Part shown: in pieces, positions 25,532 to 30,587 of the stretch
Layout of the letters: each line of letters opens with the position of its first letter
Position numbering within the stretch: position 1 is the stretch's first letter
Origin: Callorhinchus milii
Taxonomy: Eukaryota
Assembly (NCBI RefSeq): GCF_018977255.1
Contig: NW_024704760.1
Coordinates: 310,001-374,000 of the forward strand
Direction of reading: 5' to 3'
Length of the DNA stretch: 64,000 bases
Translations under genes and position numbers: made by a program
The notes under the pieces: generated by a model
Told to the model about the DNA's origin: nothing
Seen by the model: the letters and a program-made list of their open reading frames with translations, nothing else
The model's database searches: none

Positions 25532-26626
25532 ATGCGGTTAGCGAGTGTGGCACTGGTCTTGGCATTGCTCCTGGCCACTCCGCTGCTCACAGAGAACCTG
25601 CTGAAGTGTGGCACCCGCCGGGCCGGGGTGAGGGGGACCTTCCGCAACGTGAGGAGCAAAGAGCTGGAGCCGGGAGCCTGGCCCTGGCAGGTCAGCCTCG
25701 AGATGGTGGCGGAAAACAAGCATTTCTGCGGAGGGACCATCCTGAACGAGTTCTGGGTGATCACGGCTGCTCACTGCTTCCTGGACCCTGAGCTGCAGAA
25801 CCTGAAGGAGATCATCGTGGTGCTGGGCCTGAACAAGCGCCTGAGCCCCGAGAACTGGGCCCTGTACTCCAACCCCCACGACATCATCCTCCATGAGAGC
25901 TTCGACGAGGAGACGGGAGTGAACGACTTGGCTCTGATCCGCATGAAGGACCCGATCCAGTTTGGGCTTTACACCTGGCCCGTCTGCTTCCCCGACAACC
26001 CCACCTTCAACGAGAAAGACTGGGAAATCTGTATGGTGACGGGCTGGATGAAGATGGGGGAGGAGAGCTCAGACACGCTCCAGGAGACCTCCGTCTTCTT
26101 CCTCCCTTTCGATGAGTGCAACAGCAAGTTCTACAACGGCATGCTGACCCAGAACATGATGTGCGTGGACTTTGTGGAGAGCGACACAGCTACTTGTCAC
26201 ATCAACACGGGCGGCCCCATGGTGTGCCAGCCGGCCAACACCAACCGCTGGTTCCTCATCGGCGTCGTCAACTGGGTCAGCGACTGTGACCGGATGTGGC
26301 CCGGAGTCATCACCCTGACCAAGTCCTACCTGGAATGGGTGGAGAACACCACAGCCAAGTACGGCGCCCGCTTCGTCATCAACCGCTACGGCTCCGAGAC
26401 CGACATCACTCACCAGGCCAAGTCCCTCAAGATGAAAGCTGACAACTTTGCTGCTCAGATGATGCAGAACTATTGGTCGTGGAACATGATCAAAAAGGCC
26501 TACGAGCAGACCACCACCAACACCCCGCAGTATGTGACAGATACCCCTGCAAACAGCCAACCCCTCCCCCTCGCTGGGGGCAGACTGCTCCTCTGCTCCC
26601 TGACCCTGGTCCTGCTGCCAACGTGA
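25532..26626 (+). CDS. Intronless trypsin-fold (S1A) protease homolog, 364 aa, with signal peptide and C-terminal GPI-type signal; PRSS55/PRSS52/PRSS54-like; catalytic Ser replaced by Thr
   Basis: Signal peptide MRLASVALVLALLLATPLLT. Motifs WPWQVSL, FCGGTIL, TAAHC (H81), NDLAL (D132), PVCFP, CMVTGW, CHINTGGPMVC (T226), YLEWV. Ten conserved Cys. Hydrophobic tail RLLLCSLTLVLLPT*. Strong GC3 codon bias. AATAAA at 26767-26772. Confidence 0.9.
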   Translation: MRLASVALVLALLLATPLLTENLLKCGTRRAGVRGTFRNVRSKELEPGAWPWQVSLEMVAENKHFCGGTILNEFWVITAAHCFLDPELQNLKEIIVVLGLNKRLSPENWALYSNPHDIILHESFDEETGVNDLALIRMKDPIQFGLYTWPVCFPDNPTFNEKDWEICMVTGWMKMGEESSDTLQETSVFFLPFDECNSKFYNGMLTQNMMCVDFVESDTATCHINTGGPMVCQPANTNRWFLIGVVNWVSDCDRMWPGVITLTKSYLEWVENTTAKYGARFVINRYGSETDITHQAKSLKMKADNFAAQMMQNYWSWNMIKKAYEQTTTNTPQYVTDTPANSQPLPLAGGRLLLCSLTLVLLPT

Positions 26627-26766: not shown

Positions 26767-26772
26767 AATAAA
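26767..26772 (+). other. Polyadenylation signal of the protease-like gene
   Basis: AATAAA 141 nt after the stop codon, followed by GT/T-rich sequence. Confidence 0.6.
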
Positions 26773-28429: not shown

Positions 28430-28917
28430 AGAATTTTCCAGAAATTACAAAGCGAAAGATTGTGTTAATTTACAAAATCTCTCCCGTAAATCACAACACG
28501 AGGAGCCCGAGCCATTAACCTTCTGACTGTCCAGAAGATGATTTTGTGTCCATTCAATTAGGCGAGTGTTTCCTCCTGTTTCCGTGGTTCCCGGTCACTG
28601 GGGGTGAGGGAGGTGGGAGTGGGGGGAGACAAGGGGGGAGGGGAGATGAGGGAGGTGGGAGTGGGGGGAACAAGGGAGGAGGGGAGGCAAGTGGGGCGAC
28701 GGGAGGCCTTAAAAAATCAAATTCGACACAATAAAGTGCTGGAAAGGGAAGGGAGTGAGACCTGGTGATGGTAAAACTGGTTGTGATCCTCGCGATGAAC
28801 AAGACTGAGCCTCGAGGTAGGAAAAGCCACCGCGTAAACATAGATTTATATTGTAAACATCATGTGACAGTCGAGAGAAGGAGAGGGAGAGAGACGGAGG
28901 GGGAGAGAGCGGGAGGG

Positions 28918-30258
28918 CTACACCTCGTGGTTGGGAGAGCGCCCCAGTTTAACACAAGTGTTGGACACACTGAAGTCGCTGGCTATCTGCTGCTCCAGGA
29001 ACTCGCACGTCTCCTCCAGGATTTGGCCGGGGATGTGGAAGGCGAGCGCGGGCTGGTCAGGTTTGGGGCTGGAGGCCCTGGTGTCCGTGGTGCAGCCCGT
29101 GCGCTGCAGGAACTGGAGGAAGTTCTCCTCGATGGAGCCCTCGCGGCTGGGCAAGGCCGGCTCCTCCTCCACGGCCGGGGTGAAGAGGCAGCTGAGGTGT
29201 TTGCTCAGAGCCCCGCGGATCTGCCTGTTCAGGCAGCCGTAGAAGAAGGGATTGGCGCTGAAGGAAGTGTAACCGATCCAGGTGACGATGGCCTCCCAGG
29301 GTTCCTCGGGGCCCAGACCTGGGGTCATGGCTGAGTACAGGTGAAAGGCAAAAAATGGCAGCCAACACAAGACAAACTGTCCTCCCACCAGCACGAGGAT
29401 CGCCGCAGCCTTGCCCCCCCCAAAGGTCCTCTGTGGGGAGCTCCGCTGGAGGCCGGAGCTGGTGACCATGGTGGACCTGCTACTTAGGGACTCTGAGCGT
29501 CGCCTTGGGGTGTCCAGCCAGATAGGCAGCGGCCCTCGCTGCATGGCCGCCACCCTGGCCACCCGGAACATTCCGCAGTACACCGTCAGGATGATGAACA
29601 CCGGCAACAAGAAGTAGAAGACGCTGAAGAACACCACAAAGACCTTCCTGTACTTGTCGACATTCCACTGGGAGCAGCAATGGCTCCTGTGTGTGGAGGA
29701 GCCGTGAGCCAGGCAGCCCAACACCGGCACCACCGACATCAGCGCGGCTTTGATCCACACACACACGATGACAGACACGACCAGTCGCACGGTCACACGG
29801 CCCTCGTACCTCATGGGGTGGACGATGTAATAGTAACGCTCCACGTTGATGGTCAGGATGGACAGGATGGAGGCGCTGATGAACAACATGTTCAGAAAGA
29901 GGTAAATACGGCACAAGATTTCCCCCAGGGCCATGCTACCGAACAGCCCCGAGCTCGTCACCATCCCCAGCGGCATCAGGACCAGGGCTGCCAGCAGATC
30001 CACCAGGCACAAGTGGAAAACAAAGACAAACTTCTTCAGCAGCGGAGTCCGGATAATCACCAGGATCACCGCGGCGTTCCCAATGATTCCCACCAGGTCA
30101 ACCAGCAACATGAAGAAGAGGCCGATAGATTGGGAAACGATGTCCGTAGGTGCGGACACTAGGCTCCCGTTCAGAGCTGTTGACGTGGGAGAGACTTCGC
30201 TTGGCCTCCCCGCAGCAGAACCGTTCCATGTCCATCCTTCCTGACTGGCAGCAGCCAT
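28918..30258 (-). CDS. GPR61: G protein-coupled receptor 61 (orphan class A GPCR), single coding exon, 446 aa
   Basis: Seven TM segments. KFVFVFHLCLVDLLAAL, INVERYYYIVHPMRYE, RRRSESLSSRSTMVTSSG, FGGGKAA, NPFFYGCLNRQIRG and LPSREGSIEENFLQFLQ are GPR61 signature segments. Syntenic with AMIGO1 and CYB561D1. Confidence 0.96.
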   Translation of the reverse strand: MAAASQEGWTWNGSAAGRPSEVSPTSTALNGSLVSAPTDIVSQSIGLFFMLLVDLVGIIGNAAVILVIIRTPLLKKFVFVFHLCLVDLLAALVLMPLGMVTSSGLFGSMALGEILCRIYLFLNMLFISASILSILTINVERYYYIVHPMRYEGRVTVRLVVSVIVCVWIKAALMSVVPVLGCLAHGSSTHRSHCCSQWNVDKYRKVFVVFFSVFYFLLPVFIILTVYCGMFRVARVAAMQRGPLPIWLDTPRRRSESLSSRSTMVTSSGLQRSSPQRTFGGGKAAAILVLVGGQFVLCWLPFFAFHLYSAMTPGLGPEEPWEAIVTWIGYTSFSANPFFYGCLNRQIRGALSKHLSCLFTPAVEEEPALPSREGSIEENFLQFLQRTGCTTDTRASSPKPDQPALAFHIPGQILEETCEFLEQQIASDFSVSNTCVKLGRSPNHEV

Positions 30259-30587
30259 GGGTGTGAGTGGCAGGTAACAGACCCCAGAGCCCTTCCTGCG
30301 AGTCCATCACCCATCCTCTTTGGGGAGAGGAGTGTCACTGGTGGGCGATGTCTGGTCTAGCATTGGTCATTGGTCAGATGACAGGGCCCTTCCCACATCT
30401 CCAAGAGCCACGGTTACCAGCTGTCAGCCCCCCACACCCCGATCAGCCCCGCCTACAACCCCACCCCTTACACCGGCCCACCGGGTGGCGAGGGTCTTGT
30501 CCGTCCGGCTGTGACGGGTCGATCTGATGGCGGAGACGAGGAGTCCGGAGGGGATGGAACCACTCATTCACGGATCATCAGAAACCT
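30259..30587 (-). other. GPR61: Predicted 5' UTR portion of the GPR61 coding exon
   Basis: Acceptor tgtctcttcctag| (ct at 30588-30589 on +). Confidence 0.55.

Follow-up and report, generated by a model that had tools for sequence, protein, structure and literature searches.

The window, i.e. the 64,000-nucleotide stretch of Callorhinchus milii DNA analysed here, carries an intact single-exon gene for a trypsin-fold protein (table 1). Judged from its sequence, the product is probably a non-cutting surface protein with a predicted GPI anchor, which would likely bind a partner and may plausibly do so on sperm. The gene belongs to a conserved family that appears to be older than the split between cartilaginous and bony fishes.

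A complete gene with an altered active site

Table 1. Features of the C. milii gene, in positions of the window. Residues of the active site are given in chymotrypsin numbering.
Feature	Position	Strand	Evidence
S1A trypsin-fold protein, single exon, 364 aa	25532..26626	+	open frame, Pfam, GC3
Likely signal peptide, aa 1-20	25532..25591	+	hydrophobic N-terminus here and in orthologues
Degenerate activation site R-NVRS (15-19)	25643..25657	+	codon check and chymotrypsin numbering
Trypsin domain, aa 42-270	25655..26341	+	Pfam PF00089; predicted model with pLDDT 83.7; structural match 7wqx_A
His57 (His81 of the protein)	25772..25774	+	codon checked; invariant in 29/29 family rows
Asp102 (Asp132 of the protein)	25925..25927	+	codon checked; invariant in 29/29 family rows
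Met142-Lys143, in place of the usual Gly142-x of the autolysis loop	26048..26053	+	18/18 chondrichthyan rows
Ile193-Asn194-Thr195 (Ile224/Asn225/Thr226 of the protein; canonical Gly-Asp-Ser)	26201..26209	+	Thr codon ACG
Asn214-Trp215-Val216 (canonical Ser-Trp-Gly)	26270..26278	+	codon check and chymotrypsin numbering
Predicted GPI-type signal: small Ala340-Asn341-Ser342, spacer, hydrophobic Leu352-Thr364, stop	26549..26626	+	sequence pattern
AATAAA, candidate polyadenylation signal, 141 bases past the stop	26767..26772	+	sequence

The reading frame is uninterrupted over its whole length, as the initial annotation had claimed. It also needs no intron, a point on which the annotation made no remark. 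Its GC3 (0.86) is similar to that of nearby genes (0.78-0.81). The gene is present in a single copy in the genome, and its next-best match is only 31% identical. The Pfam Trypsin profile matches the domain with an E-value of 5e-45. A first predicted structure was weak (pLDDT 62), the second was good, and the latter matches 7wqx_A over 244 aligned residues (VIA Z 31.5, rmsd 2.2), i.e. it has the chymotrypsin double beta-barrel fold. Zymogen and active forms are mixed among the top structural matches, within about 2 Z units of each other. The domain has ten cysteines (residues 26, 66, 82, 152, 167, 196, 211, 222, 232 and 252) and the tail has one more (residue 355).

The initial annotation had listed His57, Asp102, the ten domain cysteines and Ile193-Asn194-Thr195, as well as R-NVRS, Met142, Asp184, Ala189, Asn214 and Val216. 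All of these are found at the expected places once the codons are checked and the residues placed in chymotrypsin numbering, where GWM occupies positions 140-142, CVD 182-184 and NWV 214-216. Relative to active S1A enzymes, the C. milii copy has the fold, His57 and Asp102, and lacks Ser195, Gly193 and the Ile16-Asp194 pair: residues 16 and 194 are both Asn.

The unusual codon of residue 195 is not a sequencing error, since the contigs of three of the four runs compared (X1, X3 and X5, from two studies) agree on it; X2 does not reach the codon. The contigs of X3 and X5 cover the entire reading frame and that of X1 covers positions 26043-26319, with no difference at this codon. Two polymorphisms are listed inside the gene and both are synonymous. 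In X1 and X2, which we guessed to be RNA runs, the gene is found only in short pieces of low depth, as are the adjacent intergenic regions. None of the runs catalogued as RNA is listed as containing the gene. The neighbouring GPCR gene (28678-30432) is covered by one X2 contig of depth 22.6 that ends near the gene ends and looks like a transcript. The genes around the reading frame are of the Wnt, 7TM-GPCR, LRR-Ig, cytochrome b561, SCA7-domain and MARVEL types, which we take to be WNT2B, GPR61, AMIGO1, CYB561D1, ATXN7L2 and SYPL2. We know of no protease in the WNT2B-SYPL2 block of mammals.

An old family in cartilaginous fishes, sturgeons and paddlefish

Full-length relatives of the gene were found in 11 elasmobranch 90% clusters and in one 90% cluster of sturgeons and paddlefish (acipenseriforms). 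Together with the C. milii copy, the sequences of sharks, rays, sturgeons and paddlefish form one clade with a support of 100/96 in a tree of 60 rows. Within it, the elasmobranch copies together form the sister group of the C. milii copy (100/99) and the sturgeons fall outside, an arrangement that the species tree predicts for a holocephalan orthologue. When the family was split into two reciprocal half-profiles, each half placed the other at the top, narrowly (237 versus 223 bits and 218 versus 187 bits). The domain of the C. milii copy is 53-61% identical to those of its elasmobranch orthologues, like the 54% of the TMPRSS12-like pair, suggesting that the gene is under ordinary constraint. 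Its terminal branch is not long (0.35 in the same tree). One paralogue, L017, was excluded from the trees because one of its exons was not located.

Automatic models of the orthologues, which include XP_067863976.1, XP_060700969.1, XP_055511112.1 and XP_033899595.3, carry four inconsistent names: chymotrypsinogen A-like, serine protease 27-like, acrosin-like and granzyme M. The sturgeon and paddlefish cluster (P0010) has at least two copies per species, with Asp195 in Acipenser sinensis; a frameshift breaks one of the paddlefish models in two. No further family member from other bony vertebrates appeared in word-based searches or among the best 150 matches of a representative search, which does not imply absence: 149 of these 150 are multi-domain proteins, their scores reach down to 252 bits, the sturgeon members are missing from them, and a held-out orthologue scores about 220-240 bits.

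Residue 195 varies on an invariant His-Asp pair

None of the 33 family sequences has Gly-Asp-Ser at positions 193-195, against 236 of the 255 other retrieved domains. The orthologues lack a normal GDSGGP too, and the C. milii site is neither a private mutation nor the mark of a young pseudogene, two outcomes that the initial annotation had named as refuting its reading. Of the 19 chondrichthyan sequences, 16 have Ser at residue 195, two have Thr (C. milii and a sawshark) and one has Gly (Heptranchias). The 14 acipenseriform sequences have Gly (11) or Asp (three) and never Ser. A parsimony count gives at least three changes of this residue on the tree. His57 and Asp102 never change. Site rates put only 4% of the columns as slower than His57 and 9% as slower than Asp102, versus 65% for position 195, 90% for 193 and 95% for 189.

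The surroundings of the site are also peculiar to the family. An IVGG-type N-terminus is found in none of the 18 chondrichthyan rows, all of which have Met142, Lys143, a bulky residue 193 and a bulky residue 216, and 17 of which have Asp or Glu at position 194. A full His-Asp-Ser triad together with Asp or Glu194 is present in 16/19 chondrichthyan sequences. The sturgeon copies keep a degenerate K-MEGG and Gly193. The replacements of Asp194 and Ser214 by Asn are specific to the C. milii copy (Asn214 occurs in one of 29 rows). In 12 chondrichthyans, 87 columns are invariant, and 24 of these residues are rare in eight canonical S1A controls. The family-specific invariant columns include Glu34, Glu37, Asn38, Glu77, Trp79, Tyr82, Pro85, Met142, Lys143 and Trp224. 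Counting all columns invariant in these 12 chondrichthyans, they make up 0/11 of the segment 16-26 and 1/13 of the 180s specificity loop, 5/9 of the 30s loop, 8/21 of the segment 65-85 and 5/10 of the 140s loop.

The initial annotation had offered a coherently rewired Thr protease as one of its readings, which the comparison with orthologues does not support. Since four residues (Ser, Thr, Gly, Asp) occur at position 195 against constant His57 and Asp102, Thr is not a fixed new nucleophile. Ser195 is encoded by AGY in all eight paralogous genes checked, and this codon is one base away from both Thr and Gly, which fits drift at the position. The Thr195 of C. milii would be a one-step drift from such a codon.

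In S1A enzymes, the pair Ile16-Asp194 orders the oxyanion hole and the S1 pocket. Without these residues the domain would stay zymogen-like, and neither the hole nor the pocket would ever form. As both are absent from the C. milii copy, its domain is likely locked in the zymogen state. Catalysis by Thr is unlikely there, given the loss of Asp194 and Ser214. On these sequence grounds, we regard the C. milii copy as very probably non-catalytic. The family as a whole is likely non-cutting, because residue 195 varies freely between species, and the C. milii copy shows a mark of pseudoproteases: an intact, conserved trypsin fold that lacks catalytic or activation residues. Two points count against this reading, i.e. 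His57 and Asp102 are constrained as in an enzyme, and most chondrichthyans keep the triad.

The same points speak for an alternative that we consider unlikely, in which the family consists of unusual single-chain active proteases: Lys143 would pair with Asp194, Ser195 would cut in galeomorphs and rays, and Thr195 would cut weakly in C. milii and the sawshark. The conservation of Lys143 and of an acidic residue 194 in chondrichthyans agrees with it, as do Ser195 in most of them and Thr195 in two lineages. A lysine serves as the surrogate partner of Asp194 in single-chain tPA, some snake proteases are active despite a bulky residue 193, and active elastase has Val216. Moreover, the activity of thrombin S195T is reported to be reduced, not abolished (bioRxiv 10.64898/2026.10.13.758922), and TSP50, whose triad reads His-Asp-Thr, is reported to be a Thr protease (PMC3344824). 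With these reports and the residues that are kept, an activation-independent enzyme is possible in the lineages that have Ser195. However, the Gly195 of Heptranchias and the Gly or Asp195 of all 14 acipenseriform sequences provide no nucleophile, yet these genes are intact. The surrogate salt bridge is impossible in the C. milii copy, which has lost Asp194 and also Ser214, and no other loop of the domain is as poorly conserved as the S1 loop.

The C. milii copy has the same three residues at the triad positions as PRSS50/TSP50 (PMC3344824), but Thr occurs in only 2/33 family sequences and the C. milii copy has also lost Gly193, Asp194 and Ser214. A marsupial PRSS42-like protein, the sole proxy of the PRSS50 cluster in our tree, is distant from the family.

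An intronless gene and its relation to PRSS55

Six C. milii paralogues (L013, L014, L015, L016, L033 and L018/L034) share three introns of phases 2, 1 and 0. The reading frame has none of them, which suggests retroposition. The gene is probably a retrocopy of an acrosin/TMPRSS12/PRSS55-type gene made before the split between cartilaginous and bony fishes. Relatives of these types are nearest to the family in every tree, although the support for the grouping is modest (71/69). In the 60-row tree, the top-scoring candidate parent (L013) stands beside the family at a support of 59/6. In another, quick tree, the family stands beside the PRSS55-like group at a support of 44. AU tests reject neither placement (p-AU 0.488 with L013, 0.325 with the PRSS55-like sequences). 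Among the other paralogues, L015 groups with acrosin-like sequences (100/94), L016 with TMPRSS12 (100/99), and L014, L033 and L018 with PRS55 (100/96).

The initial annotation had placed the closest resemblance with PRSS55. The resemblance is real but distant, since a sister relation is not rejected and a C-terminal motif after the last helix is common to the chondrichthyan members and to the three PRSS55-like genes of C. milii (the sturgeon members lack it). The PRSS55-like genes also have a hydrophobic C-terminal end, and an aromatic residue after Cys122 is shared with some members. Orthology, on the other hand, is not supported: the family and the PRSS55-like sequences form separate clades, each supported at 100/96, the PRS55 reference being one bird fragment. 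PRSS55 keeps its triad (PMC9114714), as does L014, and is a multi-exon gene (PMC6208766), whereas the C. milii reading frame has neither an intact triad nor introns. On present evidence the gene is therefore not a PRSS55 orthologue.

More generally, the gene could be a diverged orthologue of a described sperm protease, be it PRSS55, PRSS54, PRSS50, ACR or TMPRSS12, which we find improbable. Acrosin is its best sequence match among solved structures (E 8e-42), and acrosin and TMPRSS12 have the fold and the two-chain cysteine pattern in common with the family. Yet the triad and the activation site are retained in both, their C. milii genes have several exons, and the family is a separate clade. 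The genome has its own multi-exon acrosin-like, TMPRSS12 and PRS55-like genes. ACR is reported as kept in chondrichthyans and acipenseriforms, the triad is intact in 10/10 ACR sequences of the same source (PMC13762310), whose supplement contains none of six accessions of the family. Searches of the Atlas with the reading frame gave generic trypsin clusters; one auto-named inactive serine protease 54 came at rank 2 with 0.97, but ranks 1-5 all have 0.97 and this rank is not specific. The PRSS55-like motif and the p-AU of the PRS55-like grouping are, as said, signs of a distant likeness.

The paralogues themselves are diverse. L013 (L013:2311-4645, minus strand; G000:C10, ~7.25 Mb) is a multi-exon S1A gene whose activation site and triad are intact and whose tail is GPI-like; it groups firmly with neither acrosin nor TMPRSS12. 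It is flanked on one side by a lyase-family gene and on the other by a glycosyl hydrolase 2/VKOR pair, presumably ASL, GUSB and VKORC1L1. L014 (L014:1990-4300, minus strand; G000:C60) is PRSS55-like and multi-exon, with an intact triad and a proline-rich repeat tail; it adjoins TMEM107-family, L6-membrane and LRR genes. L033 (L033:5905-8175, minus strand; G000:C60, ~122 kb) is a PRSS55-like pseudoprotease with Arg57, Ala195, a long tail and a GPI-like end. A third PRSS55-like gene, a highly diverged pseudoprotease (L018:1500 to L034:1210, plus strand; G000:C29), keeps His57 and has Tyr195 and very basic 140s-180s loops. The acrosin-like L015 (L015:2019-4916, minus strand; G000:C5, near the contig end) has an intact triad and Thr193, and its predicted exons lack an IVGG motif. 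The bird protein automatically named PRS55 (P0333, a fragment) has Val193 and Gly195, pointing to non-catalytic members among bird proteins of this name too. A single-exon trypsin domain with Ala57 and Gly195 (L007:1489-2277, minus strand; G000:C15) is presumably haptoglobin-like.

A putative binding protein at the cell surface

If the protein does not cut, selection would maintain the fold together with surface residues particular to the family, and those of the 37-loop, of the loops at 70-80 and in the 140s and around Trp224 would form a binding face. We take this putative face to coincide in part with exosite I of thrombin. The trypsin fold is similarly selected without the catalytic machinery, and likely for binding, in PRSS37, PRSS54 (by its database name), HGF, haptoglobin and protein Z. 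To our knowledge, PRSS54 is non-catalytic; this status rests on the database name, and the accessible part of PMC7013879 holds no confirmation of it. The family differs from PRSS37-type homologues in its invariant His57 and Asp102, in its many Ser195 and in the single exon of the C. milii gene. By analogy with mouse PRSS37, a pseudoprotease needed for the delivery of ADAM3 to the sperm surface (PMC9114714), the protein may escort or stabilise another surface protein.

By pattern reading, the C. milii product has a signal peptide, a hydrophobic C-terminal end and no cytosolic tail. The last two features are found in 14/14 representatives, with a mean hydropathy of the last 13 residues of 0.95-2.55. 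We consider GPI anchoring of the C. milii product likely. Among the relatives, PRSS55 is reported as GPI-anchored on testis cells and sperm (PMC6208766), and ACR and TMPRSS12 as testis-biased (PMC13762310). Arguing from such relatives, we lean with some hesitation towards a role on sperm. The initial annotation had tied the gene to internal fertilisation. This link fails: the family also occurs in sturgeons and paddlefish, which are external fertilisers, and internal fertilisation is thus no explanation for the gene.

A pseudoprotease conserved for a surface role outside reproduction, e.g. on an epithelium or as a decoy for protease inhibitors, would fit all the sequence evidence for non-catalysis equally well; nothing in it places the protein in testis. 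Prostasin is an example of a GPI-type S1A protein of epithelia. We still give this alternative a low probability, the nearest relatives in every tree being of the acrosin/TMPRSS12/PRSS55 type, with the modest support given above. There is only a slim chance that the family is a series of nucleophile swaps, i.e. a surface protease that needs no activation, with Lys143 standing in for the Ile16 switch, and that is active with Ser195 in galeomorphs and rays and, independently, with Thr195 in C. milii and the sawshark. If so, a natural threonine protease with the trypsin fold would have evolved convergently a second time, and would act at the sperm surface. A processed pseudogene in decay, or an artefact of sequencing, has a negligible probability: the gene is intronless and no other copy is as degenerate at 194 and 214 as that of C. 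milii, but the Thr codon is confirmed in three runs, GC3 is 0.86, the terminal branch is not long and full-length open orthologues exist in 11 elasmobranch clusters and one acipenseriform cluster.

Discussion

We found no description of the family in the literature searched, mostly papers outside subscription. Searches on six family accessions, on elasmobranch sperm and on intronless genes or retrogenes returned no papers. The family is apparently undescribed, its orthologues being known only as automatic models under four names. Non-catalytic S1A proteins on sperm are already known, and the family would add another. With it, a very old vertebrate family joins the sperm-type serine proteases. 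If the protein is a pseudoprotease of the sperm surface, the mammalian pattern of proteases accompanied by dead paralogues would date back to the origin of jawed vertebrates. With four different residues (Ser, Thr, Gly, Asp) at position 195 of one scaffold and invariant His57 and Asp102, the orthologues offer a natural series in which to study why Thr195 is avoided by trypsin-like enzymes, and why a dead enzyme retains its His-Asp pair.
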